From assembly GCA_964396165.1 (NCBI GenBank), contig CAYNEF010000001.1, positions 65,990 through 129,989 of the forward strand: a DNA stretch of 64,000 nt, written 5' to 3'. Below the pieces are notes generated by a model. It had not been told where the DNA came from. It made no database searches and saw nothing but the letters and a program-made list of their open reading frames with translations. The DNA is from an uncultured Pseudobdellovibrionaceae bacterium (lineage in GTDB: Bacteria; Bdellovibrionota; FAC87; UBA2466). The position numbers and the translations under genes were made by a program. The number at the start of each line of letters is the position of its first letter. The stretch's first letter is position 1. Below, one piece after another: positions 1,247 to 31,665 of this stretch.

Positions 1247-1756
1247 TTAATCGCGATAAAGGCAATGTGCGTAGATTACATGGCTGTGGCGCGCTTCATG
1301 AAACCTAAGTTTACTTACTACTTCTTCTTGCAACTTTTCGATTTTCGTCTCATGAAACTCAAAGATCTCGTCGCAATCTATACAAACGATGTGATCATGA
1401 TGGCGGGTAGCGCTGATTTCAAACACTTTTTCTCCAGTGTCCTTAATAAGCGTTTCACTTACAATCCCTGCCTCGGCAAAGATTTGCATAGACCGATAGA
1501 CAGTAGCAGGACCGACATTGGGGAATAACTTCGCAACTCTTGCTATCAGTCCTATTACGGTAAAATGAGACTCGTGCTGCGCAACGATGCTTAGAATTTT
1601 AATCCTGGATTCGCTTTGATGAAGTTTTCTTTCAACGACAAAGAGATCTAGTTTGCTCTTAAGTAATTTAAACCTTTCTTCTTTAGTAGAATACTGTGAT
1701 TCTGCCCAAGAAGGAACTGGGCGACCACATGGAAGCTTGTAAGCTTTAGTTTTCAC
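1247..1756 (-). CDS. Fur-family metal-dependent transcriptional regulator (Fur/Zur-like)
   Basis: Winged-helix N-terminus and HHDHIVCIDCDEIFEF-type metal-site motifs plus a C-terminal HC..Y..D. Last gene of the minus-strand efflux operon. Confidence 0.8.
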   Translation of the reverse strand: MKTKAYKLPCGRPVPSWAESQYSTKEERFKLLKSKLDLFVVERKLHQSESRIKILSIVAQHESHFTVIGLIARVAKLFPNVGPATVYRSMQIFAEAGIVSETLIKDTGEKVFEISATRHHDHIVCIDCDEIFEFHETKIEKLQEEVVSKLRFHEARHSHVIYAHCLYRD

Positions 1757-3086: not shown

Positions 3087-3641
3087 TCAATCGAGCTCCA
3101 CTTGGATTTTTGCCTTTTTTTCTTCGCCTTCGTATTTTGCCGAAATATTCGCAAAGAAACGAAACGCCTTTTGGGGATCAAAAGCGGCTTCAAAATTCGA
3201 TTCTGTAACTGTTACCTTAACCACTTCCGTTTTCTTTTGACGCGGCAACTCAATGCTTAGGATCACGTCCTTAAAAGCACTGGTAGGAAGACTTGAAAAA
3301 ACTTTTGGGTTTTTGGGGTTTAGAGTAAGGGGGTAAATCTTAACCACCTTTTTTGTGTATACCACTTCAAAGAAAATTTCCGCCTCTTCCTTTTCTTCGT
3401 GGTGCTCATGCCCTTTTTCGGCGTGGTTTTCTTTCGACTCCTCTTTTTTGTCATGGTCATGTTCTTTTTCTGCGTGCCCTCCTCCACCATGTTCGTGTTC
3501 TTCTGCTTCATCATGTTCGGAGGCTTTTACTTCACCACCATGAGGAGCGGCGGGCATAGCACCCGGCATATCGTGGCCCTCGTGAGAAAATACATAAGCT
3601 CCCAGGGTCATCATCAGTAGAATTGACAATTTAAATTTCAT
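3087..3641 (-). CDS. His/Glu-rich periplasmic protein, putative metal-binding, in place of the expected RND adaptor
   Basis: Signal peptide MKFKLSILLMMTLGAYVFS. About 70-aa low-complexity HE/HD/HG-rich segment, then a ~100-aa beta-rich C-terminal domain. Overlaps the RND stop by 4 bp (translational coupling). The antisense ORFs at 3320..3620 are artefacts of its repetitive codons. Confidence 0.6.
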   Translation of the reverse strand: MKFKLSILLMMTLGAYVFSHEGHDMPGAMPAAPHGGEVKASEHDEAEEHEHGGGGHAEKEHDHDKKEESKENHAEKGHEHHEEKEEAEIFFEVVYTKKVVKIYPLTLNPKNPKVFSSLPTSAFKDVILSIELPRQKKTEVVKVTVTESNFEAAFDPQKAFRFFANISAKYEGEEKKAKIQVELD

Positions 3642-6783: not shown

Positions 6784-7503
6784 TTAGAGAACGAACCCAA
6801 CACCGAGATCGAAAGACCATCCTTCAAATACTTGTGCCGAGGCAAAGCTACGGTACAGGGTCGAGCCAAGTTGAACACCTTTAAACCATTTGGAAGCTTC
6901 GCTCGTCCCTTCAAAGAGATTTAAATGAGCTGATAACTGATAGGAAGGCACCCAAAACCCTTGTTCAATCCCGTCAAGTTTCCCACTTTGATAAAACCAA
7001 AGAAAGCCGACTGAAGAAGCAATGCCCGGCTTTAAAAAAGAAGCGCCCGGAATACGGTAGTCAATTTGAGCCCCTAGATTTAAAGGAAGGGTATGGACTT
7101 TTAAAACGTCGCTAAATTTCTTTCCCGATTTATTTGTCACTGAAATCAAGCTTTCACGGTAGGAATACCCAGCCGAAGCTAACCCTGAAACCTCAACGCC
7201 ATAAAAAGCCGCTAAGACAGTTCCCACCTCCACCCGTAAAGTGGGAAGGCTTGAACCCGTACTTGCATAAGGCACGGTGTAGTAATCGTTTGATAGTTCA
7301 AATTTCTCAGGGGTAATGTAAGAAAACACGGGCCTTAATATAATCCCGTTTGAAGCATAATTTTCAACTTTAGCTTCCGTGACACTTTCACGGTAAAGCG
7401 TATTGACTAAATCCTTATCCATTTCAAAATCGGATTTAGATTCTGGTTCTGAGCCAAAGGTAGACAAACAAAAAATAGCTAAGACAAACAAAAACCGACT
7501 CAT
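6784..7503 (-). CDS. Secreted protein, possible small outer-membrane beta-barrel
   Basis: Signal peptide. Alternating hydrophobic pattern, aromatic-rich, C-terminal ...GVGFVL. 11 bp upstream of the RND start, so in the same operon. Confidence 0.45.
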   Translation of the reverse strand: MSRFLFVLAIFCLSTFGSEPESKSDFEMDKDLVNTLYRESVTEAKVENYASNGIILRPVFSYITPEKFELSNDYYTVPYASTGSSLPTLRVEVGTVLAAFYGVEVSGLASAGYSYRESLISVTNKSGKKFSDVLKVHTLPLNLGAQIDYRIPGASFLKPGIASSVGFLWFYQSGKLDGIEQGFWVPSYQLSAHLNLFEGTSEASKWFKGVQLGSTLYRSFASAQVFEGWSFDLGVGFVL

Positions 7504-8735
7504 TTATTCACCTCTAAGTTACCCACTTCCCCGAGCGCATCCGCTGCTACTGTCCCTCGGATTACTTTCCGATCTACGTCCGCTTTCACCGTTAAATTGT
7601 AACTTCCCGTTGTTTTTGCAACAAGCTTTCTTGTGTAGTAGTTATATTGAACTTCGCTGAAAGGGAGCTCGAAATACTCAGTAGAACCGAAGGGTCCAAG
7701 ATAAAACCTAACATTACCAGTCACTTTAAGACCGTTGGGGCTTGTCAGATCTTGGGAAGTGACAAAAGCGATCTGCACTCTTTCCGGTAGGTTAGAGTTT
7801 GGATTTGTGTTAACGAACTTACCTTGATAGGTCCCTTTTAAAGCCTCAAAAACATCCCCTGCTCCTGCTGTATCGGGAGGACCAGTTTTTCTAAAAGAAA
7901 TTTTTCCGAGCGTTCCCGTATATTGGCTGGACCATTCGCCAGTGACCTCCCCTTCAGCCCAACTTCCGGAGAGAACGATATCAGTGCCTTCTTGCCTGAA
8001 AATAATTTGCCCCGTAACGGCGTTAAACTGTACTTTATCGAACTTATAGGTCAGATATTCCGATGAGTTCCAGTCGCCGCAGATTAACTTTAAGGTAGCT
8101 GCCGCCTTCAACCCCTCAGGAGGCTGAAAACTCGTCTGAAGGTTAAGCTGGCCTAAATGGTAGAGCTTGCCCTCACGCAAAAGAATACCTTGGTATTCCC
8201 CCTTTAATTGTTCTGCTAACCCATTTGTCGATTGCGTTGCATTGCGATCTAATGAAACTGTCCCGGAACTCACAGAGGTGGGCATCGTCCAAGTTCCCTG
8301 AAGTTTTGACTCTGTTTGAGTGAGCGAAAAAATTATATTTTCCCCAGAGCTCGCGACTACAATATCAAGAGCACTTCGTTTTGGATCAAAATCAGCCTTT
8401 TGTACGGCAAATCCAGGAGAGGTATTCGGATCACATCCTTGACCAAATGTAAAACATAGGTATCCCGTAAGAATTGGGGTCATCACAGGATCGACTTGTC
8501 CTTCAATCGTTGTAGGGATGTCCTTGATTTCAAGACGCAAGGAAACGTTTTGTGTTTTACCGCTGGTCTGCACGAGTTTGCCAGCATACTCCCCTTCGAC
8601 CTGTTTTAACTCAGAACGTTTATTTTCCGACGATGCTCGAAGCTGTTCTCTTTTCAGATCTCTATCGCTAACAGAATTTTTCGAGCAGGAAATAGCAATA
8701 AGACCAAAGAATGCAAGTGCAAGTTTTTTATACAT
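7500..8735 (-). CDS. Lipoprotein built from ~110-aa tandem repeat domains (uncharacterised family)
   Basis: Lipobox LIAISCS. Three to four internal repeats with the L(K/T)G.Y.G...(F/Y)LGPFGS.EY...F..VQ(F/Y)N.Y.R.L motif. Paralogous to 8753..9580. Confidence 0.6.
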   Translation of the reverse strand: MYKKLALAFFGLIAISCSKNSVSDRDLKREQLRASSENKRSELKQVEGEYAGKLVQTSGKTQNVSLRLEIKDIPTTIEGQVDPVMTPILTGYLCFTFGQGCDPNTSPGFAVQKADFDPKRSALDIVVASSGENIIFSLTQTESKLQGTWTMPTSVSSGTVSLDRNATQSTNGLAEQLKGEYQGILLREGKLYHLGQLNLQTSFQPPEGLKAAATLKLICGDWNSSEYLTYKFDKVQFNAVTGQIIFRQEGTDIVLSGSWAEGEVTGEWSSQYTGTLGKISFRKTGPPDTAGAGDVFEALKGTYQGKFVNTNPNSNLPERVQIAFVTSQDLTSPNGLKVTGNVRFYLGPFGSTEYFELPFSEVQYNYYTRKLVAKTTGSYNLTVKADVDRKVIRGTVAADALGEVGNLEVNK

Positions 8736-8752
8736 TAGTACCCTTCCTAACT

Positions 8753-9580
8753 TTATGGATAGTGCGTAAGGGTGGCGTCAGCGACTTGCCCCATCCCATC
8801 GGCAAAAACAGTGCCTGTAAAAATCCCATCGTGACTCATTTTGCCTTTGAAGGTTAAGCCATATTCCATAGTACGCGCCGTCAAATAACGATTGTAAAAA
8901 TTAAACTGCACATCGGTGAGTTTTGTTTCCACATATTCCAAAGAGCCAAAGGGTCCAAGGTAAAGACGCACATTTCCGGAAATGACAATTTTAGGTTCTG
9001 TCCCTGAATTTTCTTGCGTACTCACTAAAGACATTGAAGCACGCTCTGGCAGATTAGACTCGGAGTTGGTGTTTTTTAACTCTCCCCGATAATGTCCGGT
9101 AAGCGTTTTAACTAAAATGCCTTGAGAAGGAGGCGTAGGTTCTACATCTTTAGCAGCGCTGAACTTGCCGACCTTTCCAAGCAACGTCGAATGCCAGTCT
9201 CCCTGAATCGTTCCGGTCTTAAGAAAACCAATCATACTTACGTTATTTTTTTCGCTTCGAAGAGTAATTTGCCGTGTAAGTAAGTTCATTGGCACATCGT
9301 CAAATTCGTAAGTTAAAAATTCATTTGAGTTTTGTTCCCCGAAAAAAATTCTCAAATTTGCTGATATTTTAAGCTGGCCACCACCGACGTTTACGGTGCG
9401 TAGCGTTATGTGCGCATATTGGTAAAATTGGCTGCCGTCATGAAGTAAAACCGCCTTATACAACCCCTGCACCGACTCATCATCCAAAGAATTAGCTTCA
9501 GAACCAAAACTTGCGAATGGCGTCATAAAAGAGAGTACTAAAATACCTAAAAAAAACTTTTTGATGTTTGACTGGAACAC
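8753..9580 (-). CDS. Secreted paralog of the 7500..8735 repeat-domain protein (two repeats)
   Basis: Signal peptide. NLPERASMSLVSTQ...VRLYLGPFGSLEYVE...VQFNFYNRYLTA aligns with NLPERVQIAFVTSQ...VRFYLGPFGSTEYFE...VQYNYYTRKLVA in the neighbouring gene. First gene of the operon. Confidence 0.6.
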   Translation of the reverse strand: MFQSNIKKFFLGILVLSFMTPFASFGSEANSLDDESVQGLYKAVLLHDGSQFYQYAHITLRTVNVGGGQLKISANLRIFFGEQNSNEFLTYEFDDVPMNLLTRQITLRSEKNNVSMIGFLKTGTIQGDWHSTLLGKVGKFSAAKDVEPTPPSQGILVKTLTGHYRGELKNTNSESNLPERASMSLVSTQENSGTEPKIVISGNVRLYLGPFGSLEYVETKLTDVQFNFYNRYLTARTMEYGLTFKGKMSHDGIFTGTVFADGMGQVADATLTHYP

Positions 9581-9679: not shown

Positions 9680-10429
9680 ATGCGCAATAACTTTCCCATG
9701 CTAATTCCCTTATCAAAAGAGAGGGAGCCGAATTTGAAAGGGGAAAAACGTCGTATTTTATTGGTGGAAGACCATATAGACATGGCAGAACCTTTAATAA
9801 AGGGGCTGGAAGAAGAGGGGTTCTACGTAAAACACGTAACTCTTGGGAAAGAAGCCATTCGTGTTTTTAACGAGGTTTGGCAACTAATCATTTTAGATCT
9901 CACGCTTCCCGATGTGCCCGGCGAATCTATTTTAAGCCACTTAAAACAAAAACCCGACTATCCTCCCGTTCTTATCCTCACTGCCCGAAGCAAAGTAGAA
10001 GATAAAGTAGAACTCTTTCGTCAAGGCTGTGACGACTACATGACTAAACCTTTCGCATTTGAAGAGCTTTTAGGACGAGTTCAGGCGCTCCTTCGACGTT
10101 CGCACCGGGTTCTGCCTAATAAAACCACCCTTTTAGATCTGGAATTAGATCCCAGCACTCATGTGCTCTCTAAGAAAAACCTCTCTACGCAACTCACTCC
10201 GAAAGAATCTGCCTTAGTGCAATTTCTTATGGGAGCCGAAGGAAGAGTAGTCTCTAGGAAAGAGTTGTTCTTATATGGTTGGGGACTTGATAAGGAACCT
10301 GACACTAATTTCATCGGGGTTTACCTCTTTAACCTAAGAAAAAAACTTTCTGAAGTAAATTGTGCAGACTGGTTGATGACGCTTCGAGGAACTGGATACC
10401 GCTTTTACGATCCGAAAGAAAAACAATGA
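9680..10429 (+). CDS. OmpR-family response regulator (CzcR/CusR-like)
   Basis: Receiver domain (RILLVEDH...D) plus winged-helix trans_reg_C (LTPKE..LL). Likely true start is TTG at 9734, preceded by gagggag 6 nt upstream, giving M-KGEKRRILLVEDH. Confidence 0.85.
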   Translation: MRNNFPMLIPLSKEREPNLKGEKRRILLVEDHIDMAEPLIKGLEEEGFYVKHVTLGKEAIRVFNEVWQLIILDLTLPDVPGESILSHLKQKPDYPPVLILTARSKVEDKVELFRQGCDDYMTKPFAFEELLGRVQALLRRSHRVLPNKTTLLDLELDPSTHVLSKKNLSTQLTPKESALVQFLMGAEGRVVSRKELFLYGWGLDKEPDTNFIGVYLFNLRKKLSEVNCADWLMTLRGTGYRFYDPKEKQ

Positions 10430-11691
10430 CGACGAAAGTTAGATTCACTCTCACCATTTCGATGGTAGTGGCCCTTTTGGTGGGAGCACTCAGTTCGTTC
10501 GTGTATGTGAGAGTCCGCGCCAAGATGCTTACCCAGGCTTCCCAATCCCTTGCGGACTTCCTTAAGCATGAAGCCGATCATATCGTTCATCCTATGGAAC
10601 AAAATGGGTTAGTGATCGACAAAAATCACTTTGGGGATTTTCTTTTGAAAATAGAATCTGAAAACGAAATCCTTTTTGACGGATTCCCCCAAAAAACCGC
10701 CGAAATTAATTCTCCCAATTACATTGTAAAAAAAGTAGTCCAAGATATTAACGGAAAGCCTTTGACCTTGACGGGGGCTTATAATTTGGCCCCTCTTTAT
10801 CATTACCTCGACTCGCTTCTTCAAACTTTGATGTTAGGGTGGGTGCTTACTGTTGCACTCATCATTCCTATTAGTTATTCCCTTGCACTGGCTTTGCTTA
10901 AACCGTTTAGAAACCTTGCTGCAGTGACGTACGAATTGCGCGCCGAAAGTTTGGAGTTTCGGTTCCCAGTACCCCAATATAAAGACGAAGAAGGTCTATT
11001 AGTAGTTTCTTTCAATGCTCTATTGGAACGTCTTCAGAGGTCCTTCGAAAGCATGAGAAATTTCTCACGTAATGTCTCCCATGAGATTCGAACGCCTGTT
11101 TCCGTCATTATGAGCCAATCCGAGATGGCTTTGCGAAAAAACAGGACTTCCGACGAATACCGTAATGCTTTGGAAAAGTCCTTTGATGAATCAAAAAGGT
11201 TAAAAAGCATTATTGACAACCTTCTCTCGCTTGCTGAAGTTGATAGGATTTATGATGAAAACAGAAAGACCACTTTCCCTGTTTTGCTAAGAATTAAAGA
11301 AATTGTGGCAACTCTTACTCAGCAGAGGAATGAATTGAAAGAAATTGCAATTGACTGCGACGAAAATCTTTTGTTTATCGGAAATGAAGTGGCTTTCACC
11401 TCTATCGTCTCAAATCTGATTGAGAACGCCCTTAAATACGGCGGAAAAAAAGTACGTGTATCCTGCATGGAGCAAGGAGAGCGAGTAGTTTTTCTCATCG
11501 AGGACGATGGCCCTGGGATGGTTAGCGCCACTGCCTTACCAAGCAAAACAAAAATGCCTAAGGGAGAAACAAGTCATGGACTTGGGCTTTCAATTGTAAG
11601 AGCTTTTTCTGAAGCTTATGGAGGAGAACTTATCCTTAAGCAATCTTCCCTAGGTGGGCTTTGCGCGACCACCTCTTTACCCTTGAAATAA
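10426..11691 (+). CDS. Sensor histidine kinase (two TM segments, HAMP, HisKA, HATPase)
   Basis: H-box SHEIRTP, N-box NLIENALKYG, G-boxes DDGPGM and GLGLS. ATG overlaps the response-regulator TGA (ATGA); the track ORF starts earlier, at 10360, in the same frame. Confidence 0.85.
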   Translation: MTTKVRFTLTISMVVALLVGALSSFVYVRVRAKMLTQASQSLADFLKHEADHIVHPMEQNGLVIDKNHFGDFLLKIESENEILFDGFPQKTAEINSPNYIVKKVVQDINGKPLTLTGAYNLAPLYHYLDSLLQTLMLGWVLTVALIIPISYSLALALLKPFRNLAAVTYELRAESLEFRFPVPQYKDEEGLLVVSFNALLERLQRSFESMRNFSRNVSHEIRTPVSVIMSQSEMALRKNRTSDEYRNALEKSFDESKRLKSIIDNLLSLAEVDRIYDENRKTTFPVLLRIKEIVATLTQQRNELKEIAIDCDENLLFIGNEVAFTSIVSNLIENALKYGGKKVRVSCMEQGERVVFLIEDDGPGMVSATALPSKTKMPKGETSHGLGLSIVRAFSEAYGGELILKQSSLGGLCATTSLPLK

Positions 11692-19393: not shown

Positions 19394-21622
19394 ATGACGC
19401 AAAAAAACTACGATAAGGCCGGTACTACCTCTCACTTGGAATTAAAGGTTCACGGAATGGATTGCGCTGAAGAAATCTCGGCCCTTAAACGAGAGATACT
19501 GCCTACTCTTGGGGAAAACGGGAATCTTTCCTTTGATCTACTGAACGGGAAAGTGTCCATTACCTCAGAAAAATTTATCCCATTGGAATCCATATTAGCT
19601 GCAATAAAAAAAACCGGGATGAAAGCCGAAATGTGGGACAAGGGACAAAAGCATCCACAAAAAGAATCTTGGTGGCAAAGCCATAGCCGCACAGCATCGA
19701 CATTGGCTAGCGCAACTTCCCTTTTAATTGGCTTTTTGCTCCATGCGCTCACTTCGAAAAATTTCCGGATCGCTTTTGGCGCTGAAGAAACTGGACAAAT
19801 ACATGATGTTCCTTACGCCGTACGCGGCTTTTATCTCTTTGCAATCGTCTCGGGAGGTTGGTTTATCCTTCCCAAGGCTTTTTATTCCTTAAAAAAATTT
19901 CGTCCCGATATGAATCTGCTCATGACCATCGCCGTGTGCGGCGCCATCCTGATTGGTGAATGGTTTGAGGCGGCGACAGTCGCATTTCTCTTCTCGCTTT
20001 CGTTATTGCTGGAATCCTGGAGTGTCGGCAAGGCAAGAAAAGCGATTCAATCTCTTATGGCTCTTACACCCTCTCGAGTGCATCTAAAGGATGTCTCCGG
20101 TGCACTTAAAGAAGTTGAGCCATCTGAAGTCCCTGTTGGATCTATTATTCTCGTTCGCCCCGGGGAAAAATTCGCTCTCGACGGCAAGATCATCTCAGGT
20201 TCTAGTTATGTCAATCAAGCTGCCATCACTGGGGAAAGCATTCCGGTTTTTAAAGATTCAAGCGCTGAAGTATTTGCGGGTACCGTGAATGGCGACGGAG
20301 CGCTTGAAGTAGAAACGACAAAGTTGGTTTCAGACACTATGCTTTCGCGTATTATTGGAATGGTTTCTGAAGCGCAATCGAAAAAGGGCCCTTCGGAGCA
20401 ATGGGTTGATAAATTTGCGGTAATATACACGCCGATAGTCTTAATGTTAGCGTGCGCTGTTTTATTTATCCCGCCACTCTTTCTAGAAGGCAACTGGACA
20501 GATTGGATTTATCGGTCTTTAGTCCTTTTAGTTATCGCTTGCCCATGTGCTTTGGTCATATCGACTCCCGTTAGTATCGTATCTGCATTAGCGGCGGCGG
20601 CTAAAAACGGGATTCTAATAAAAGGTGGAACTTATATAGAGGCCCCAGCTCATTTAAAAGCCATTGCTTTTGATAAGACCGGTACCTTAACCCAAGGCAA
20701 ACCAAGAGTGAGCGAAGTTATTCCCTTGGGAAACCATACTGAGGCTGAACTGCTAGCCCTTGCAGCCGGAATGGAAACGCATAGCGATCATCCCCTTGCG
20801 AAAGCAATAAGGGAACATGCGGAGCAAAGGGGAATTAAGCCTAGTGTCGCAACTGATTTTCAAACCATACAAGGGAAAGGAGCCACAGCTTTAATTAAGG
20901 GTCGAACTTATTGGCTTGGCTCCCACCGTTTTTTGGAAGAAAAGGGGCAGGAAACCCCAGAAGTGCATAAAGCCATAGAGGAGAAATCTTTCTCCGGAAA
21001 AAGTGTAGTAGTACTCGGCAATGAAACGCATGTGTGTGGTTTTATCGCTCTTAACGATTCTTTAAGATCGGGTGCGAGGAAAGCTATTGAAGATCTCAGG
21101 CAAAAAGGCGTTGAACGGCTGGTCATGCTGACTGGAGATAATAGGACAACCGCGAAAAATATTGGTGGGGAAGTCGGCGTTGATGAGGTCTTGTCCGAGT
21201 TACTGCCCTTGGACAAAGTAAAAAGTCTTGAAGCGCTTAATAATAGATACGGAACAACCGCTATGGTCGGGGACGGGATTAACGATGCTCCTGCATTGGC
21301 CGCTGCTACATTAGGTATCGCAATGGGGGTCACAGGAAGTGACGTCGCTCTTGAAACGGCTGATATCGCTCTCATGTCGGATGATCTTTCGAAGCTGCCT
21401 TGGCTTATCGACCACTCCAGAAAAACACTACGGATCATTCGGCAAAACATAACCGCTTCAATTTTTGTCAAAGCTGTCTTTGTGCTCCTTACCTTCCTTG
21501 GATATTCTTCTCTTTGGAGTGCAATCGCAGCAGATATGGGCGTCTCGCTTGCGGTTGTATTTAATGGGTTGCGGCTACTTAGCAATAATGTCGAAAATCA
21601 ATCCCCGATAACACTACGATAG
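19394..21622 (+). CDS. P1B-type heavy-metal ATPase (Zn/Cd/Pb, ZntA/CadA-like)
   Basis: N-terminal HMA-like domain, TM CPCALVISTP, DKTGTLT, SDHPLAKAI, GDGINDAP. The HMA motif is GMDCAEE, with only one Cys. Confidence 0.9.
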   Translation: MTQKNYDKAGTTSHLELKVHGMDCAEEISALKREILPTLGENGNLSFDLLNGKVSITSEKFIPLESILAAIKKTGMKAEMWDKGQKHPQKESWWQSHSRTASTLASATSLLIGFLLHALTSKNFRIAFGAEETGQIHDVPYAVRGFYLFAIVSGGWFILPKAFYSLKKFRPDMNLLMTIAVCGAILIGEWFEAATVAFLFSLSLLLESWSVGKARKAIQSLMALTPSRVHLKDVSGALKEVEPSEVPVGSIILVRPGEKFALDGKIISGSSYVNQAAITGESIPVFKDSSAEVFAGTVNGDGALEVETTKLVSDTMLSRIIGMVSEAQSKKGPSEQWVDKFAVIYTPIVLMLACAVLFIPPLFLEGNWTDWIYRSLVLLVIACPCALVISTPVSIVSALAAAAKNGILIKGGTYIEAPAHLKAIAFDKTGTLTQGKPRVSEVIPLGNHTEAELLALAAGMETHSDHPLAKAIREHAEQRGIKPSVATDFQTIQGKGATALIKGRTYWLGSHRFLEEKGQETPEVHKAIEEKSFSGKSVVVLGNETHVCGFIALNDSLRSGARKAIEDLRQKGVERLVMLTGDNRTTAKNIGGEVGVDEVLSELLPLDKVKSLEALNNRYGTTAMVGDGINDAPALAAATLGIAMGVTGSDVALETADIALMSDDLSKLPWLIDHSRKTLRIIRQNITASIFVKAVFVLLTFLGYSSLWSAIAADMGVSLAVVFNGLRLLSNNVENQSPITLR

Positions 21623-22931: not shown

Positions 22932-23294
22932 ATGCATAAAGGTCTGTTAAAATTTGTGGGAATTCTAGTAGGAAGTTCTCTTTTATTTGCTTATTTGTTT
23001 AGCTTTAAACAGTCTAAAACCGTAAGCAGTGAAAACCTTAAGTCTTCAAATGCTCAAACTTGTCAAATCTCGGAAATGACACCTACGTCTTGCTCAGGGG
23101 ATAAGGACGACCACGCTGGTTCTGCTGAAGATACTTCACACTGTCAAAAGCACTGCGGCCATGTTCATGCCGGACTTCTCTCAGATGCAAATCTGAATCT
23201 CACTTCACCAGACTCTAAAAAATCCATCGATTCCCCCGAAAAAACACCCGAAAACGTAATTCTCGATCCTGGCTCTCGTCCTCCCAATCTTTAA
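22932..23294 (+). CDS. Small membrane-anchored Cys/His-rich protein, possible metal binding
   Basis: N-terminal TM, then TCQISEMTPTSCSGDKDDHAGSAEDTSHCQKHCGHVHAG. Confidence 0.35.
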   Translation: MHKGLLKFVGILVGSSLLFAYLFSFKQSKTVSSENLKSSNAQTCQISEMTPTSCSGDKDDHAGSAEDTSHCQKHCGHVHAGLLSDANLNLTSPDSKKSIDSPEKTPENVILDPGSRPPNL

Positions 23295-23372: not shown

Positions 23373-23837
23373 TTGGAGATTAAACAAATGAAAACTTTAA
23401 ATCTATTAAGCGTTGGAATAATTATTACTTCTCTTTCAGCAAGCGTCAGCTATGCTCGCACAAGCTCAATCCGAGGTCGATTCGATCATAGCATGCGAAA
23501 ACCAGTACTCACTGACGTAAAGTGGACCGGAACATTCCGTTGTGAGGAGAAAAAACACGCAGTCGATCATGAGAAAAACCATGAATGCGATCTGGAATTT
23601 GTAAATGACGATACAAATGAAGTCTGGAACGTTAAAACCACAAAGGCTCTTGAGTCAATGCACCAACAATATGATGGGCCAATAAAAGCACAAATTGAAG
23701 CAGTGCGTTCCCCCCGTTATTTATTAGGAGGAAGTTATGTGGATATCAAAAATATCAAGCTCATGGACGGTGCGGTAAAAGACGATAAGCTTCCTGAAAG
23801 TAAAGATAACGAGAAAATGAGAAATGGCCGTATTTAA
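23373..23837 (+). CDS. Secreted hypothetical protein
   Basis: Signal peptide. No motif recognised. Confidence 0.45.
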   Translation: MEIKQMKTLNLLSVGIIITSLSASVSYARTSSIRGRFDHSMRKPVLTDVKWTGTFRCEEKKHAVDHEKNHECDLEFVNDDTNEVWNVKTTKALESMHQQYDGPIKAQIEAVRSPRYLLGGSYVDIKNIKLMDGAVKDDKLPESKDNEKMRNGRI

Positions 23838-23975: not shown

Positions 23976-25235
23976 GTGCGTTTAAGCTTATCCAAAATAG
24001 CCAAAATAGTAACCATCCTGTTCTTGGTTTTGCCTCCAGTACGGGCCGAGGAGGAAGTTAAACCTGAAAAATGGACTTTAACCAAATTGCTTGAAAAGGC
24101 TTCGGCCAATTCTGCAACTGTTAAAGCTGCCGAAAAAGATTCTATTTCAGCTGAAAACCAAGCTTACCAAGCAGGCAAATGGGATAATCCGGAGGTCTCA
24201 GCAAACTTTGGCGAAAAATCCGATAGTAGCACTAAAGGAAACGTCTTTCAGGTTTCCCTGCTTCAAACCGTTCCTGTTTTCGGACAAAAAAGCATCTTGG
24301 AAAAAATAGGGAACCAGCAATTCCTCATTTCCCAAACTGAAAAACAAATCCAAAGCCTAATCCTTCAGCATGAGGTCGTAAAACGAGCTTACCGTCTCGC
24401 CGCGGTAGACGAACAAATGAAACATGTTTCCCATCGCAAGGATAAAATTCACCTAGTTGAACAATATTTAAAAAGCCGCCCCTTTGCCTCCCCCTCTCAA
24501 TTAGTGGAAAAAAGCCTGATAGAAAATCGCTTGCGAGAAATAGAAGAGAAATTTGTTCAAATTTCAGCGACAAGGGAAAAAGAATGGCAATCCTTGAACA
24601 TACTGCTCAACTTTTCTTCACCAATTTATCCCGAGCTAAATTGGTTTACCTCTCCTACTCTTCCTAACCGCGAAAGCCTACTTGAAAAAATACAAAAGGA
24701 TAATTTGGAGATCACTAAACAATCAAAGGTGGTTGCGACTTCAGAATTACAGATCGAGCAGGCAGGTAAAAAGGTTTATCCAGAGGTTCGAGTAGGGGGA
24801 GGATACAATCAAGAAATTTTGGGTACTACTGAAAAGTCTTACTATGGAATGCTTCAGCTCAGTATCCCTCTTCTAGACAGGGGGGGCTATGGGCTTGAAG
24901 CAGCAAAAGCCAAACGCGAAGCAGAGACTTACCGATTGGAGCAACAGCGACGCGAGACGGTTAGCAAGTTTGGAGAAGCGTGGGCTGAGCTGACTGAAGG
25001 GACAAGGCGACTAGAATTATTTCCACTGTCACTAGTCCCAAAACTTGAGAATCAAATGAAAGTCACCGAAGCAAATTGGCGAAAGGGATTAGTGCAAGTA
25101 GCGTCATTTCTCGAACTAGAAAACCAAGTACATGAACAAGCTGTAAAAGTATTTGATGCGCAAATGGCTTATGTCGAAGCTCTAAGTCACGTGCTTCTCT
25201 CGTCGGGACAGTCTTTTCCTGTGGAGGGAAAATAA
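23976..25235 (+). CDS. Outer membrane efflux protein (TolC/CzcC family)
   Basis: Signal peptide, OMF-like coiled-coil repeats. Stop is 1 bp before the RND ATG. Confidence 0.8.
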   Translation: MRLSLSKIAKIVTILFLVLPPVRAEEEVKPEKWTLTKLLEKASANSATVKAAEKDSISAENQAYQAGKWDNPEVSANFGEKSDSSTKGNVFQVSLLQTVPVFGQKSILEKIGNQQFLISQTEKQIQSLILQHEVVKRAYRLAAVDEQMKHVSHRKDKIHLVEQYLKSRPFASPSQLVEKSLIENRLREIEEKFVQISATREKEWQSLNILLNFSSPIYPELNWFTSPTLPNRESLLEKIQKDNLEITKQSKVVATSELQIEQAGKKVYPEVRVGGGYNQEILGTTEKSYYGMLQLSIPLLDRGGYGLEAAKAKREAETYRLEQQRRETVSKFGEAWAELTEGTRRLELFPLSLVPKLENQMKVTEANWRKGLVQVASFLELENQVHEQAVKVFDAQMAYVEALSHVLLSSGQSFPVEGK

Positions 25236-25236
25236 A

Positions 25237-28200
25237 ATGCTCAATACTCTTGTGGAATCAGGCCTTCGTAATCGTCTTTGGGTATTTTCCCTTTTTGGCG
25301 CGCTTGCACTCTTAGGAATCGGTGCAGTTATTAGCCTTCCTCTGGATGCTGTTCCAGATATAACGAATGTTCAAGTTGTTGTTAATACGAAAACAAATGC
25401 TTTAGATCCAGGAAAGATAGAAAAGCTCGTTACCTACCCCATCGAAACTGAGCTTTCGGGGATGCCGGGCGTTGAGCAAGTCCGATCTCTTTCCAAATAT
25501 GGGCTCTCCCAAGTAGTCGTTATTTTCGAGGAAGGCACCAATATCTATTTTGCGAGACAACTTGTTTCCGAGCGACTTCAAGGAGCGCGCGAAAATATTC
25601 CAAGCGGGCTCTCCCCCGAAATGGCTCCTGTTACAACCGGCCTTGGCGAAGTACTGATGTATGTGGTGACAGCAAAGCCAGGCTCTGATTTAGCGAAAAA
25701 AACCGAGAAAGAACAACTTTTATACTTGAGAGAGATGCAAGACTTTGTCATTCGCCCACAACTTAAAAAAATTACCGGTGTGGCTGACGTTGACACTAAC
25801 GGAGGATTCCTTAAAGAAGTGCATATCAACTTCGTTCCAGAACGCCTCGCCCACTTTGGGCTATCTTTGGATAAATTCATCACAAAGATCGATTCCCTAG
25901 GAGAAAGTTTCGGCGGAGGCTACATACAAAAAGAAGGGAATCAAGTAATAGTTCGGGCAACGGGCAAGGTGGCCGATCTTGAAACCATTTCCAACTTGCC
26001 ATTAAGTTTAAATGTAAGTGGAAAACCAATTCGGATAAAAGACGTTGCAGATGTAAGCGTTAATAGCGCTCTTCGACTGGGAGCTGCAACTTTTGGGGGT
26101 AAAGAAACGGTACTGGGCACAGTTCTCATGTTAATTGGTGGAAATAGTCGAGAAGTTTCCTCGCAAGCAGAAGACTTTTTAAAAAGAGAAATTCAGCTAC
26201 CGCAAGATGCTGACGTGAACATTGTTTATTCTCGAAGCCACCTTGTGGGCGCCACTATTCATACTATCCTTAAGAATCTCTTTGAAGGGGCGCTGCTAGT
26301 TGTCGTAGTCCTGTTACTTTTATTGGGCAATTTTAGAGCTGCCTTAACCGTTGCGCTTGCTATCCCAATCTCGATGCTTTTTGCGCTTAAAGGCATGGCA
26401 ATTTCCAAAATTTCAGCGAACTTGATGAGCCTTGGGGCAATTGATTTTGGGCTGCTTGTGGATGGTTCTGTCGTTCTCATTGAAAATATCGTTCGAAGAT
26501 TTGAAGAACTTCATGGAAAAGTTATCGATAAAAAAGAAAAACTGGAAATTGTATTAGAAGCAAGCCAAGAGGTTTTAAAACCCATCGTATTTGGACTTTT
26601 AATCATCATGCTAGTCTACGTACCCATCCTTTATTTAGAGGGTGTCGAAGGAAAAATGTTTAGACCAATGGCGGCAACGGTGCTTTTAGCTTTGGGCGCA
26701 AGTCTTATTGTTGCCTTGTTTCTTATGCCTGCATTGGCTTATTTCCTTATCCCCAGCAAAATTAAGGAAACAGAACCCTGGCTCTTTCGTATCATTAAAA
26801 ATCTTTATCAACCGTTGTTGAAGGTTAGTTTAAAGCAACGATGGATAGTCGGCGTTATTACGTTAATTCCAGCCACTCTCGCAATCTTTCTATTTTTTCA
26901 ACTGGGGTCTGATTTCGTGCCTCAGTTGGACGAAGGAGATTTAGTCATTAACCTTGCAAGGGAATCCCGGCAGGGAATAGACGAGTCGGTAATTCGCCAA
27001 AAACAGGCTGAGGAAATTATCGGGAGTTTTAAAGAGGTTGAATCCGTTTTTTCCCGAATGGGCACCCCTGAATCAGCCCTTGATCCTATGGGACCCTATT
27101 TAGCGGATACTTTTGTAATCTTGAAAAAGAATAAAAATGAATGGCCCCAAATATCAGGTAGAACGAGGACAAAAGAAGAACTGTTTGAGGCTATCAAAGT
27201 TGAGCTTGAAAAAAATAACCCGACCCAAGAAGTTTCACCTAATCAGCCCATTGCGATGCGATTTAATGAGATACTTGAGGGATCTCGAGCGGATATTTCC
27301 CTTAGAATTTATGGACCCGATCTGGACAAGCTTGTTGAATATTCAGAAAAGGCGCAAAAGATTTTGTCTGATATGAAAGGAATATCCTCCCTTGAATCAG
27401 ATCCTTTAACAGCCCTGACCAAAGGTCCAGTACTCGATGTGGTCTTGGACTACGAAAAAATGGCGCGCTTCGGACTTTCGCTTCGCGATGTGAATGGCGT
27501 TCTAGAGAGTGCGATGAGCGGACGTGAAGTCGGATCTTTTTACGAGGGAGATAGGAGGTTTGCTATCGTTCTACATCTTAAAGAAAGCTTAAGAAATGAC
27601 ATTTCTCAAATTGCCGCTGTTCCGGTAAGTCTTCCTGATGGGGGAACTATTCCTTTGTCATCCGTCGCTACCATTAGCGAACATGACCAGGTTACAACAG
27701 TCGCAAGAAGCGGTGCCAGAAGATATTCCGCGTTGTCTATTTTTCTTAAGGACAGGGATATTGCGAGTTTCGTTGTGGAAGCAAAAGAGCGAATTAAAAG
27801 CCAGTTGAATTTGGACTCAAATTATACGGTCGAATGGGGAGGACAATTCAAAAACTTGGAAAGAGCCCGCAAAACTCTCTTTATTATTATTCCAATTACA
27901 CTTCTTGTGATCTTTATTCTCCTACTAAAAAGTTTTGGTAACATTCGCCACTCACTGCTGGTTTTTAGCGCGATTCCATTCGCTGTAGTTGGGGGAGTAT
28001 TCGCACTTTATTTTAGAGGAATTAATTTTAGCGTCTCTGCAGCGGTAGGTTTCATTGCTTTAGCGGGTATCGCTACACTGAATAGTATGGTGATGGTAAG
28101 TTTCTTTAATCAACTTCGTGCTAAGGGAGAAGGGATAGAGGATACAATCTTTAAAGGCGCCCTTCTAAGGCTTCGTCCCGTTGCGATGACAGCGCTTGTA

Positions 28201-28392
28201 GCTAGCTTAGGGTTTCTTCCCATGGCATTAAATACCGGCATGGGCGCCGAAGTGCAACGCCCCCTTGCCACCGTTGTCATTGGCGGACTTTTCACCTCAA
28301 CAATTTTGACTCTTATTGTTGTACCTATATTATACGGCTGGATTGAGAAAAAGTTTGGCACGGAGAGTTCCACTCCAGTAGACCGCGTTTAA
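25237..28392 (+). CDS. Heavy-metal efflux RND transporter (CzcA/CusA family)
   Basis: 1051 aa. N-terminus ...DAVPDITNVQVVVNT...VTYPIE matches the HME-RND signature region. Confidence 0.9.
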   Translation: MLNTLVESGLRNRLWVFSLFGALALLGIGAVISLPLDAVPDITNVQVVVNTKTNALDPGKIEKLVTYPIETELSGMPGVEQVRSLSKYGLSQVVVIFEEGTNIYFARQLVSERLQGARENIPSGLSPEMAPVTTGLGEVLMYVVTAKPGSDLAKKTEKEQLLYLREMQDFVIRPQLKKITGVADVDTNGGFLKEVHINFVPERLAHFGLSLDKFITKIDSLGESFGGGYIQKEGNQVIVRATGKVADLETISNLPLSLNVSGKPIRIKDVADVSVNSALRLGAATFGGKETVLGTVLMLIGGNSREVSSQAEDFLKREIQLPQDADVNIVYSRSHLVGATIHTILKNLFEGALLVVVVLLLLLGNFRAALTVALAIPISMLFALKGMAISKISANLMSLGAIDFGLLVDGSVVLIENIVRRFEELHGKVIDKKEKLEIVLEASQEVLKPIVFGLLIIMLVYVPILYLEGVEGKMFRPMAATVLLALGASLIVALFLMPALAYFLIPSKIKETEPWLFRIIKNLYQPLLKVSLKQRWIVGVITLIPATLAIFLFFQLGSDFVPQLDEGDLVINLARESRQGIDESVIRQKQAEEIIGSFKEVESVFSRMGTPESALDPMGPYLADTFVILKKNKNEWPQISGRTRTKEELFEAIKVELEKNNPTQEVSPNQPIAMRFNEILEGSRADISLRIYGPDLDKLVEYSEKAQKILSDMKGISSLESDPLTALTKGPVLDVVLDYEKMARFGLSLRDVNGVLESAMSGREVGSFYEGDRRFAIVLHLKESLRNDISQIAAVPVSLPDGGTIPLSSVATISEHDQVTTVARSGARRYSALSIFLKDRDIASFVVEAKERIKSQLNLDSNYTVEWGGQFKNLERARKTLFIIIPITLLVIFILLLKSFGNIRHSLLVFSAIPFAVVGGVFALYFRGINFSVSAAVGFIALAGIATLNSMVMVSFFNQLRAKGEGIEDTIFKGALLRLRPVAMTALVASLGFLPMALNTGMGAEVQRPLATVVIGGLFTSTILTLIVVPILYGWIEKKFGTESSTPVDRV

Positions 28393-29079: not shown

Positions 29080-29499
29080 TTAGTCGGAGCTATGCTCCTG
29101 TGCGAAAGCTTCGATTCTGGATTTAAGTTCATCTCGAACTTTTCGAAAACGACTTAACTCTTCTTCTTCAGAGCCCCCTTTGCCAGCAGGATCAGGCAAA
29201 GGCCAATGCACTTTAGTTGCCCTAGAAACCATCTGTGGGCACACTTCTTCCGCGCATAAAGTAATCACATAATTTAAACTAGCAATGAATCCCGGATGCA
29301 AGTCATCGTATGACTTAGAGTGATGACTGGTAATGTCGATACCAATCTCATTCAGCGTCTTTATGGCACTGGGATTTACTTTCGACGGTGCAGATCCCGC
29401 GCTCTCCACTTTCACGCTTTTATCGAATATCTTTTTAGCAAGGCCTTCTGCCATTTGGCTCCTTGCTGAATTTGCGACACACATAAATAGAATATTCAT
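29080..29499 (-). CDS. arsC: Arsenate reductase, LMW-PTP (thioredoxin-coupled) family
   Basis: CX5R P-loop CVANSARS plus downstream Cys pair (LCAEEVCPQ). Confidence 0.85.
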
Positions 29500-30569
29500 A
29501 ATAGTTTCTCCTCAAAGCGTCTTTTTCTCAACCAAAAGGCAGCCTGGACAAGCGAGATCAGTACCGGCACCTCAACCAAAGGTCCTATAACAGTCGCGAA
29601 TGATGCCCCATGCGCTATTCCGAAAGTCGCAATCGCTACCGCAATCGCTAGTTCAAAGTTATTCGAAGCGGCTGTAAAAGATAGACTGGTTGCTTCTCGA
29701 TAATTCGCGCCAGCCTTTTGACTTAATATGAATGATAAAAAGAACATTACTACGAAATAGATGGCGAGTGGAATCGCTATACGTAAGGTGTCTACTGGTA
29801 AGGCGAGGACCGTATCCCCTTTTAAAGAAAACATAACCTCAATTGTGAATAAGAGTGCCGCTAAAGTTATCGGACTGATCCGAGGAATAAACTCCTTGTC
29901 GTACCAATCAATTCCTTTTGTAGGTCGCAAGATAAGTCTTGTAATAAAACCAGCCGAGAAAGGGATGCCTAGGTAAATACCTACTGATTTTGCGATATCC
30001 CAAATCGTTACATGCAATTGTAGACTTTGGAGTCCTAACCAACTTGGAAATAGAGTTAAAAAGAGATAGGCATAGAAAGGAAAGAATAGGATTTGAAAAA
30101 TAGAATTAAGAGCGACGAGCCCGGCGCAGTACTCGGCACTTCCTTCCGCAAGTTCATTCCATACGATAACCATGGCTATGCAACGGGCAATTCCCATTAG
30201 CATTAACCCTGCCATATACTCAGGTTTGTCTTTTAAAAAAATAATGGCCAGAAAAAACATGAGCAAGGGTCCGATAAGCCAATTTTGAATTAGGGAGAGA
30301 GCTAGGATTTTTTTATTACGGAAAACCTCTCCTAATTTTTCGTACTGCACCTTCGCCAAAGGGGGATACATCATAAGGATCAATCCTACGGCGATAGGAA
30401 TTGAAGTCGTTCCCAAACTAAATTGAGTAAGGGCTTTCCCCAGTTGTGGCGCAAATACACTTATGACTAACCCCAGGCCCATGGCCAAAAAAATCCAAAG
30501 GGTTAAGTATCTATCTAAAAAAGAAAGTTTCTTGGTTTTCATGGCAGGTATCATTGGCATTAGCAACAC
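29496..30569 (-). CDS. acr3: Arsenite efflux permease, ACR3 family
   Basis: 357 aa, 10 TM, ACR3-like conserved segments. 4-bp overlap with arsC. Confidence 0.85.
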
Positions 30570-31000
30570 TTAGCGGCTGTTGAACAAGCGTTTGCTTTTG
30601 GAACCAACCTTGGCGGTTCTGTTCCGACCGCGGGTAACTGTTCGTGTACAAAAAAGACTTCCCATGAGTTCCCATCCGGATCTTGAAACCAAAATTTGTC
30701 TTGCTTCGCAAAGCAGCAATCCGTTGCTTCCTCTATCAACGTTGGGATGTTTTTCGCAGAAAGATTTTTTTGCCACTCCTTCACTTCATCAACGCTCTCG
30801 ACCTCAATACCAAGATGGTTCACATGACTTGCTTTTCTGCCATCTACCGCTTCATGCATGGCAAAGTTCAGAGCTAGCGTCTTTAAATCAAATTTTGCAT
30901 AGGTTGCAGATTGTTTTTGAGGTTCTACTCCAAATACAGTTCGATAGAAATCTACTGATTTTTTTAAGTTCAATACATTAATAGATAGATGTGGTCTCAT
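30560..31000 (-). CDS. VOC/glyoxalase-fold protein with vicinal Cys pair (ArsI-like C-As lyase / CadI-like)
   Basis: Start taken at MRPHLSIN with RBS aaggag 6 nt upstream. TDCCFA vicinal cysteines, C-terminal CSTAAKCC. Confidence 0.55.
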
Positions 31001-31010
31001 TCGGTCTCCT

Positions 31011-31409
31011 TTAACAACCTTTTTCAAAGCAATCGAAAATTCGGCACTCTCGCATGGATTGCTCTCCCTCACCGCAAACTTTTGAAAGTCGGAAAAGAGA
31101 AGCTTTCATCTGCTTCAGATCCTCAATCTTTTTACGAATCTCCTGGATCTTCTCATTGGCCTTTTCTTGTACCTGGGCACCAGTAATTTTTCGCTTGGAT
31201 TGTATATCCAAGAGTTCTTTTACTTCCCGTAAGGTAAACCCAAGTTCCTGAGCACGCTTAACAAAGCGAACACGGGAGGCCTCATCGTTTGTATAGAGCC
31301 TAAAACCGCCATCACGGCGTTGGGGCTTTTTGATTAGCCCCTTCCGCTCATAAAAACGAATGGTTTCAACTCCTACACCGGCGAGCTTAGCTAATTTTCC
31401 AATCGTCAT
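31011..31409 (-). CDS. MerR-family metal(loid)-responsive transcriptional regulator
   Basis: HTH MTIGKLAKLAGVGVETIRFYERKGLI, coiled-coil, C-terminal Cys cluster (CGEGEQSMRECRIFDCFEKGC). Start at the internal Met. Confidence 0.75.
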   Translation of the reverse strand: MTIGKLAKLAGVGVETIRFYERKGLIKKPQRRDGGFRLYTNDEASRVRFVKRAQELGFTLREVKELLDIQSKRKITGAQVQEKANEKIQEIRKKIEDLKQMKASLFRLSKVCGEGEQSMRECRIFDCFEKGC

Positions 31410-31430
31410 ATCCACACCTAACACCCTACA

Positions 31431-31450
31431 CTCCGTACCATAGTACGGAG
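31431..31450. promoter_or_regulatory. Perfect 20-bp dyad CTCCGTACCATAGTACGGAG inside a MerR-type promoter (TTGACT, 19-20 bp spacer, TAGGGT)
   Basis: Seen directly in the sequence, 22 bp upstream of the merR-like start. Confidence 0.45.
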
Positions 31451-31665
31451 TCAATGGTAATCTTGATTTGAGCCAATTATTCAGTTTGAAGCAGGAATTG
31501 GACATTGATTCCTACAGAACGTACATTTTACTAGACAAAGACTTTTCCACCACTAGGCACATATTTTCAAATGGAAAGATTGTTTACGCTTCAAACGTGG
31601 GACGATTGCACCGTAGGGTTAGAAGATCAGCTTAATATTATTAGCTTTTGATTTCTAGTATATAT

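Follow-up and report, generated by a model that had tools for sequence, protein, structure and literature searches.

What is the role of a small secreted protein whose gene lies between those of a heavy-metal efflux transporter and of an outer-membrane channel, in an operon where no adaptor gene is found? This question is raised by a 64-kb stretch of DNA from an uncultured Pseudobdellovibrionaceae bacterium (contig CAYNEF010000001.1 of assembly GCA_964396165.1), called here the window, that encodes a 184-residue His-rich protein directly 3' of the gene of a resistance-nodulation-division (RND) transporter. The answer favoured here, with a probability of about 0.55, is that this small protein is a dedicated periplasmic subunit that captures a divalent metal and hands it over to its pump, a member of a heavy-metal efflux (HME) RND clade specific to Bdellovibrionota. 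It may also take on part of the role of the missing adaptor. This reading draws on the strict association of the small gene with a single pump clade and on the covariation of His residues between the two partners. A preliminary description of the window, made from the sequence alone, had presented the protein as a metal sponge or chaperone located where czcB normally lies.

Gene, domains and fold of the small protein

Judged from its conservation, the small open reading frame (ORF) is a real gene and not a chance ORF, since homologues sharing 22-75% identity with it preserve both its frame and its position. As the preliminary description had stated, it is located between an RND gene, recognized by TIGR00914, and an outer-membrane factor (OMF) gene, recognized by the OEP family. 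On the minus strand, its ATG (3641-3639) shares bases with the TGA stop codon of the RND gene (3640-3638), and direct reading of the sequence places a GGAG 10 nt 5' of this ATG. The ATGA overlap and the translational coupling with the RND gene reported earlier are thus found in the sequence. At the other end, the ATG of the OMF gene (position 3085) comes 1 nt past the TGA stop codon of the small gene (3089-3087). A search for promoter and terminator consensus sequences between the RND, small and OMF genes gave no more matches than expected from shuffled sequences and is uninformative.

The protein begins with a Sec-type leader (MKFKLSILLMMTLGAYVFS) made of an n-region with K2 and K4, a hydrophobic core and the residues V-F-S ahead of H20. 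The cleavage site was deduced from the -3/-1 rule of signal peptidase I (SPase I) and is not the output of a dedicated predictor. Among the 132 family members whose leader counts at least 12 residues before the motif described below, the first His of the H-x-x-H sequence is found at a median position of 21; position -1 holds A, G or S in 126 cases and position -3 a small or aliphatic residue. As these residues fit the SPase I rule throughout the family, the mature chain very probably starts at His20. The same features agree with the periplasmic location initially proposed for the protein.

The first 17 residues of the putative mature chain (residues 20-36, HEGHDMPGAMPAAPHGG) join three His to a Pro-rich core and constitute a candidate metal-binding motif. 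In an alignment of 91 sequences, P26, G27, P30, P33, G35 and G36 are conserved at 97-100%, giving the consensus PGALPPAPxGG, and the conservation of H20 and H23 reaches ~81%. Both Met of this segment are specific to the subclade of the window protein, most relatives having Ile and Leu there.

This motif is followed by a His/Glu/Lys-rich linker. The low-complexity segment quoted in the preliminary description is indeed present, with fewer His than the about 20 announced: the protein contains 13, every one of them within residues 20-87 (13 His in 68 residues, binomial P ~3e-9 at a background of 2.2%), together with 22 Glu/Asp, and residues 88-184 are devoid of His, Met, Cys and Trp. In the AlphaFold2 (AF2) model, the predicted local distance difference test score (pLDDT) is below 50 across residues 35-83, which predicts disorder. 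An origin of the His tract by DNA repeat slippage was rejected, the coding region containing no tandem repeat.

Such a composition could be that of a free periplasmic metal buffer, a sponge comparable to PcoE or SilE that would make no specific contact with the pump. The 13 His and 22 Glu/Asp of a mostly disordered segment, the 24-31 His of some relatives, the co-expression with a metal pump and the low-scoring matches to ZrgA, ZIP and ZnuA, which are all located in the His-rich region, are consistent with this proposal. However, the linker is the least conserved portion of the protein. In the 133 members of the His type, the segment from the first His to the start of the folded domain varies from 20 to 121 aa (median 36) and from 2 to 28 His (median 6), the window protein, with 66 aa and 13 His, occupying rank 5. 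The compact member P0216 (136 aa) is essentially linker-free and that of locus L013 has almost no linker, yet their genes keep the same position. Furthermore, a folded and conserved C-terminal domain and a Pro-rich motif would be superfluous in a sponge, and the invariable association with a single RND clade, like the covariation of His described below, points to a specific partnership, so that a free buffer is very unlikely. Since its length and His count vary and compact members nearly lack it, the His-rich tract is, on the evidence of these alignments, a lineage-variable insertion that is accessory to the family core. What stands of the initial proposal of a metal sponge or chaperone is a plausible pump-linked metal handling, suggested by synteny and covariation; the His tract itself does not belong to the conserved core.

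The matches of the small protein in family databases are compositional, as they are confined to low-complexity residues 33-97. ZrgA (NF047873) scores 23 bits for a cut-off of 185 and ZIP 14.8 bits for a cut-off of 35.1. Identities as ZrgA, ZIP, ZnuA or a Na/Ca exchanger were thus rejected, the corresponding matches to the His/Glu tract being far under cut-off. A Pfam scan of the protein at E <= 1 found only the weak compositional ZIP match, and neither PF11604 nor PF04234; Pfam and NCBIfam together gave only sub-threshold compositional matches, none to the domain models (HlyD_D23, PF25973, PF25954 and PF25975) of membrane fusion proteins (MFPs), the periplasmic adaptors of RND systems, and the neighbouring genes gave no MFP match either. 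In the same way, 17 family members compared with Pfam gave zero matches at E <= 0.01.

Residues 88-184 are predicted to fold into an eight-strand beta-sandwich (AF2 pLDDT 85-96), in which the conservation of E92, F115, R134, R161, F162, Q180 and E182 across the family is 95% or more. A Foldseek search of the PDB with this domain ranked apo CrdA first and CrdA-Ag second, apo CrdA being the sole match at E <= 1e-3, and CrdA is the top PDB match by two fold-search methods. As modelled, the domain is an immunoglobulin (Ig)-like beta-sandwich of the CopC type, whose nearest relatives are CrdA and CopC. The preliminary description had suggested looking there for an oligonucleotide/oligosaccharide-binding (OB) fold as in CusF; an OB fold and CusF homology are excluded by the secondary structure of the AF2 model and by the two fold searches. 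It had also counted a match to an unrelated family as an argument against metal delivery, and the likeness to CrdA/CopC is one to a related functional class. A profile search against all PDB sequences gave nothing relevant at E <= 10, neither CopC nor CrdA being among its matches. When 1.84 billion representatives were searched exhaustively by HMMER with a profile of the domain, 97 proteins were retrieved, all small members of the same family except P0203 (568 aa), a false positive with FN3-like repeats.

Association with one pump clade and absence of an adaptor gene

A profile search of a collection of 5.8 billion sequences gave 90 clusters and, with the representative search, ~170 sequences were gathered. 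The family comprises ~100-170 small proteins, which have no match in Pfam or NCBIfam, and all the members with a named source come from metagenome-assembled genomes (MAGs) of Bdellovibrionota (Pseudobdellovibrionaceae, Bdellovibrionaceae and Bacteriovoracaceae). In 20 of 20 non-redundant contexts, the small gene is located directly 3' of an HME-RND gene belonging to a single clade, and the stop and start codons mostly overlap or abut. A compact member of 136 aa scoring only E 1e-4 keeps this place. Thus, as far as sequence comparisons go, these small proteins are a previously unannotated family confined to one phylum and one pump clade. It is proposed to define it by a leader, H-x-x-H (or a lipoprotein Cys-Asp), PGALPPAPxGG, a sandwich carrying E92, R134, R161, F162, Q180 and E182, and a gene position immediately 3' of an RND gene from the DDA/His-cluster clade presented below. 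The window protein has all these features and its RND falls in this clade. A literature search found no paper that deals with this family, nor one on Bdellovibrionota HME pumps lacking an MFP.

The partner pump of the window is recognized by TIGR00914 (826 bits for a cut-off of 701, E 4.5e-248) and PF00873 (E 1e-261), and its best PDB relative is CusA. RNDs associated with the small gene share 63-81% identity with each other, and only 28-34% with the MFP-associated RNDs of the phylum or with the second RND of the window. Transmembrane helix 4 (TM4) of all of them is AIGELVDDAIVDVEN, with an Asp-Asp pair (DDA), a motif that we take to be that of AcrB, those of CusA and CzcA being presumably DAA and DGA. 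The residues of CusA that we take to be its Cu(I) Met triad, M573, M623 and M672, correspond to A, N and H in the window RND, which does not have this triad. It carries instead a periplasmic His cluster (H208, H212, H613, H618, H661 and H665). The flanking motifs GRAELDEHAEGVHNSE and GQPISHxLDHLLSG, including DEHAEGVHNSE and ISHxLDHLL, are conserved in every orthologue from operons of the same type as that of the window.

Two types of operons can be distinguished. In type-1 operons, such as that of the window, the genes come in the order u275, u411 or a shorter paralogue of it, u239, RND, small protein and OMF, preceded by a divergent two-component system of the OmpR type and often followed by a ~530-aa paralogue of u275/u411. 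One MAG holds three paralogous type-1 operons (L003, L004 and L008). In L003 (6881-10011), the RND gene is broken into ORFs of 775 and 260 aa by a frameshift or an assembly error. In type-2 operons, the order is that of genes for an ArsR-type regulator, a dedicated paralogue of LspA (signal peptidase II, Peptidase_A8), the RND transporter, the small protein, a product of ~87 aa and a cation diffusion facilitator (CDF) transporter, and an OMF gene is lacking. There the small protein is made as a lipoprotein and its mature end, C-D-A-D-D-E-L-PGALPPAPNGG, is His-free. Asp at position +2 is an inner-membrane retention signal in E. coli; by this rule, the type-2 protein would therefore sit beside the pump.

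No MFP gene was found in any of the loci examined by Pfam and NCBIfam scans, precomputed Pfam listings (L015-L022) and tblastn, each locus being seen to ~10 kb per side. In the window, Pfam was applied to all the ORFs of the two RND regions and to ten larger ORFs at 40-64 kb, and tblastn covered the whole 64 kb; with two Bdellovibrionota CzcB proteins as queries, it gave no match in the window or in L001-L013. This is not a detection failure, since MFPs are readily detected in other HME operons of the phylum: L014 has two CzcB genes, and in L011 an HMBD+HlyD_D23 protein is encoded beside a CusA-type RND. The small protein is not a degenerate MFP, a proposal rejected on its size, its fold and its zero MFP matches. 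In the same way, u411 was rejected as a hidden adaptor, its AF2 model (pLDDT 85) consisting of three avidin/calycin-like eight-stranded barrels. The absence of the gene deserves attention because MFP and RND genes are normally co-transcribed (PMC10872679). Adaptor-free operons imply either an unlinked adaptor, which would be unusual, or a different mode of pump assembly; with ~10 kb covered on either side, an unlinked MFP is possible.

The comparison with czcB made in the preliminary description should be considered in this light. The small gene does lie between RND and OMF genes, but in the order RND-X-OMF and not OMF-MFP-RND; no czcB-like gene was found among the window ORFs screened, and sequence and fold searches do not support homology of the small protein with czcB or CusF. 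The CzcB-type MFPs of L014 (12820-13821 and 17795-18784) have His-rich tails, GVGHGEHGHGESGGHDED near the N-terminus and DDHDHAEVDDHGE at the C-terminus. Where an MFP is present, as in this HME operon, the His-rich segment is thus borne by the MFP itself, which makes the functional analogy with a CzcB N-terminus reasonable.

The missing adaptor leads to another possible role. The small protein could be above all an obligatory assembly subunit of an MFP-less RND, a mini-adaptor that would stabilise the RND trimer or connect it with the OMF or envelope, in the manner of MmpS4 and MmpS5 for MmpL4 and MmpL5 (PMC12122801), with the His secondary. In addition to the absence of an MFP gene in a phylum whose MFPs are readily detected, this is favoured by a synteny with the RND gene that is strictly one-to-one, by the translational coupling of the two genes, and by the fact that the most conserved elements are not ligands (PGALPPAPxGG, F115, R134, R161 and F162). 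The type-2 lipoprotein, with its Asp at +2 and its own adjoining LspA paralogue, suggests anchoring beside the pump, and MmpS5 is precisely a small co-encoded protein that its RND cannot do without (PMC12122801). However, a sandwich of 97 aa and a disordered tail cannot build the ~10-nm hexameric tube of an MFP, the type-1 protein is soluble and unanchored, and an MFP could be encoded elsewhere in these genomes. Moreover, such a role leaves unexplained the N-terminal His and their covariation with the His cluster of the pump. A purely structural subunit therefore seems rather unlikely. It should be emphasized that neither this role nor that of a sponge is mutually exclusive with metal hand-off. 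It is also conceivable, if unlikely, that the pumps of this clade run without any MFP and that the small protein is their obligatory periplasmic subunit. Soluble in OMF-bearing operons and lipid-anchored in OMF-less ones, it would then unite substrate loading with whatever coupling the pump requires.

The covariation opposes the two operon types. In type-1 pumps, His is near-invariant at positions 208, 212, 613, 618, 661 and 665, which are occupied in type-2 pumps by K, S/V, F, N, E and F, whereas both types have kept five conserved His that lie outside this domain of the pump, the periplasmic one. Changes from His to another residue account for 4 of the 29 fixed differences between the two types, for ~0.25 expected. 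Type-2 pumps have also gained ~10 periplasmic Met, and this gain, together with the loss of the His cluster, suggests that they handle a different metal. Thus, His-type partners are paired with His-cluster pumps, and Asp/lipoprotein partners with cluster-free pumps. Such a His/His covariation is what a hand-off by ligand exchange predicts.

It would also be difficult to account for if the small protein acted in signalling, by presenting metal to the divergent sensor kinase or by modulating induction, as for PmcY/CzcS, since the covariation involves residues of the pump. This role has a precedent in a transporter-linked periplasmic Zn chaperone that supplies a sensor (bioRxiv 10.1101/2025.05.19.654957), and an OmpR-type two-component system adjoins type-1 operons in the window, L015, L019 and L022. 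Nevertheless, the coupling is to the RND gene and not to the kinase gene, and most type-2 operons, which have an ArsR-type regulator and no adjacent kinase (in L015, a two-component system lies ~1 kb downstream), have kept the partner. A signalling accessory is most improbable.

Under the favoured reading, that of metal capture and hand-off, the small protein would be secreted and, after removal of its signal peptide, would give a mature chain of ~165 aa starting with His. The sequence H1-E-G-H4-...-P-H15-G-G would capture a divalent transition metal in the periplasm and, in the lineage of the window, ~10 further His and the many Glu/Asp of the flexible linker of 50 residues could add a low-affinity capacity. 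From the His/carboxylate chemistry of the partner and the pump, Zn(II), Ni(II), Co(II) or Cu(II) are candidate metals. The CrdA/CopC-like sandwich, perhaps with the invariant PGA(L/M)PPAP segment, would dock on the pump, and ligand exchange would move the metal to the cleft cluster H613, H618, H661 and H665, located at the place of the Met triad of CusA. The RND would then export it via the co-encoded OMF.

Several points weigh against this reading. The linker varies from 2 to 28 His and, being unconserved, its sponge capacity cannot be the core function of the family. The N-terminal motif has an AF2 pLDDT of ~55 and is not placed with any confidence, and metal binding by the small protein is a candidate property, as are the metal and the direction of its transfer. 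Type-2 partners have kept PGALPPAPxGG and the domain although their His are gone, so that these invariant features may serve docking or assembly and not metal binding. Lastly, the covariation is essentially a single split between two clades; as this corresponds to one evolutionary event, it is suggestive of a hand-off and not a statistical proof of it.

Neighbouring genes and surrounding region

The coordinates of the features are collected in Table 1. The three conserved genes that head the operon of the window have no assigned function. In BLAST comparisons, u411 has sequence paralogues in u275 and in the ~530-aa proteins. The u275/u411/u239 set is syntenic in most type-1 loci and, since it also accompanies the classical MFP/OMF/RND cluster of L014, it looks like an accessory module of HME pumps specific to Bdellovibrionota. 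At the other end, a Fur-family gene is apparently the last gene of the efflux operon. Its best NCBIfam equivalog is Fur (88 bits for a cut-off of 146), and it falls under every equivalog cut-off. It was not found in any other locus examined and is specific to the lineage of the window. The divergent two-component system likely regulates the operon.

Table 1. Positions of the features discussed, in the window unless another locus is named
Feature	Position	Strand	Basis or remark
Small His-rich RND-partner gene	3087..3641	minus	184 codons + TGA; sequence, ORF list, conserved homologues
Signal peptide, residues 1-19	3585..3641	minus	SPase I cleavage before His20 deduced from rule
Mature N-terminal motif, residues 20-36	3534..3584	minus	Family alignment
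His/Glu/Lys-rich linker, residues 37-87	3381..3533	minus	10 of the 13 His; composition and AF2 disorder
C-terminal beta-sandwich domain (predicted), residues 88-184, 97 aa	3090..3380	minus	
HME-RND transporter, CusA/CzcA family, 1044 aa	3638..6772	minus	Translationally coupled to the small gene
OMF, 432 aa	1787..3085	minus	PF02321 OEP, E 5e-39; syntenic in type-1 loci
Fur-family regulator	1247..1756	minus	PF01475, E 3e-28; 30 nt past the OMF stop
Three conserved genes heading the same operon	6784..9580	minus	None encodes an MFP
u239, secreted beta-rich protein	6784-7503	minus	
u411, lipoprotein	7500-8735	minus	
u275	8753-9580	minus	
OmpR-type response regulator and histidine kinase, divergent	9680..11691	plus	Pfam; same arrangement in L019 and L022
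SulP/STAS/carbonic anhydrase fusion, 758 aa	15597-17873	plus	Pfam
Metal-resistance region	19394-21622 / 29080-31505	plus / minus	
Two small secreted ORFs	22932-23294 and 23373-23837		Pfam-negative; 5' of the second OMF/RND pair
Second OMF and CzcA-type RND pair	23976-28392	plus	OMF by PF02321; RND start 2 nt past the OMF stop
Type-2 operon, L015	5963-11780		
Type-2 operon, L017	6355-11661		
Type-2 operon, L018	5912-11712		
Type-2 operon, L020	2505-8771		

The window carries a second pair of OMF and CzcA-type RND (DFGLLVDGSVVLIEN) genes, again with no MFP gene between or nearby. The two small secreted ORFs that precede it have homologues near the type-1 operons of L004 and L010. The surrounding region also encodes a P1B-type ATPase with an ACPCALVISTP motif, which presumably resembles ZntA/CadA, and an ars-like cluster including an ArsC of the low-molecular-weight phosphatase type, an ACR3-like permease (PF01758), a glyoxalase-fold protein and a MerR regulator. 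From this gene content, it looks like a metal and metalloid resistance island, a setting that, with the divergent two-component system, counts in favour of metal hand-off. Besides these genes, the window encodes a fusion in which a SulP-family permease is joined to a STAS and a beta-carbonic anhydrase domain.

If the hand-off reading holds, ~100-170 hypothetical proteins would gain a role, and u275, u411 and u239 would be flagged as candidate components of metal efflux in predatory bacteria. Moreover, the natural pair of variants that co-vary with the pump, the His type and the Asp/lipoprotein type, could be used for studying metal selectivity between chaperone and transporter.

Comparison with known systems

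Very few systems are known in which a periplasmic metallochaperone feeds an RND pump; CusF is one and CrdA probably another. To these the small protein would add a third solution, unrelated in sequence, in which metal would go from an N-terminal His motif to a His cluster and not from Met to Met. The functional model is CusF, the Cu(I)/Ag(I) chaperone of E. coli, which is likewise small and periplasmic, has its gene within an HME-RND operon (cusCFBA) and supplies the pump with metal. However, CusF folds as a five-stranded OB barrel, binds metal at a Met2His(Trp) site and hands it to the MFP CusB, whereas the small protein is a predicted Ig-like sandwich with candidate His/carboxylate ligands, no PF11604 match and no MFP recipient.

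CrdA (HP1326), encoded by the crdAB-czcBA operon of H. pylori, is a CopC-like periplasmic Cu/Ag binder, Met-rich and His-free, that was proposed to be a copper chaperone (PMC9182242). Like the small protein, it is a small secreted protein from an HME-RND/OMF operon. The two proteins have no sequence similarity detectable in the PDB profile search, and CrdA binds metal by a Met-rich loop within its domain (MMxEMPGMxxMxEM), whereas the candidate ligands of the small protein are on an N-terminal extension. Furthermore, the operon of CrdA includes an MFP gene (CzcB) and those of the small protein none. Thus, the functional class matches that of CrdA; the ligand set and its location do not.

The likeness to CopC, PcoC and YcnJ (PF04234) lies in a mature protein that would also open with His1, which in CopC supplies the amino-terminal Cu(II) site, and in the M-x-x-M-P-G-M loop of CopC, which H-D-M-P-G-A-M loosely resembles. 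However, His1 of the small protein is 20-121 residues away from the domain and does not lead into strand 1: it is on a detached segment (N-terminal pLDDT ~55) that may or may not fold back onto the conserved E92, Q180 and E182, and the domain has no in-register His, Asp or Met ligands. Devoid of His and Met, it lacks the usual internal metal sites of the CopC/CrdA family, His1/Asp/His for Cu(II) or a Met-rich loop for Cu(I). In addition, the usual partner of CopC is CopD and not an RND.

The N-terminus of CusB and the tails of CzcB are also flexible His- or Met-rich segments located at the periplasmic entry of HME pumps, but they belong to MFPs of 330-400 aa with barrel-sandwich hybrid, beta-barrel and C-terminal domains, none of which exists in the small protein. 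Nor does the latter have the MFP architecture of alpha-hairpin, lipoyl, beta-barrel and membrane-proximal domains. PcoE and SilE share with it a disordered, ligand-rich low-complexity sequence. They are sponges for several metal ions, induced with metal-resistance genes (PMC9182242). They differ in being wholly disordered until metal-bound, in their Met/His motifs and in being untied to an RND gene, whereas the low-complexity part of the small protein is a variable insertion beside a folded conserved domain.

Finally, MmpS4 and MmpS5 are proteins of ~140 aa, co-encoded with an RND and essential for it, in systems that have no classical MFP (PMC12122801), and their periplasmic domain linked to a membrane anchor is comparable to the type-2 lipoprotein. 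They serve another RND family, with siderophore or drug substrates, are anchored by a transmembrane helix and are encoded upstream of the RND, whereas the leader of the window protein would be cleavable and leave it unanchored. As the small protein gave no Pfam match and no MmpS is found among its top-ranked structural matches, the relationship is one of analogy only. If the pumps of this clade did run without an MFP, they would represent a new architecture of Gram-negative RND efflux, comparable to mycobacterial MmpS-MmpL.

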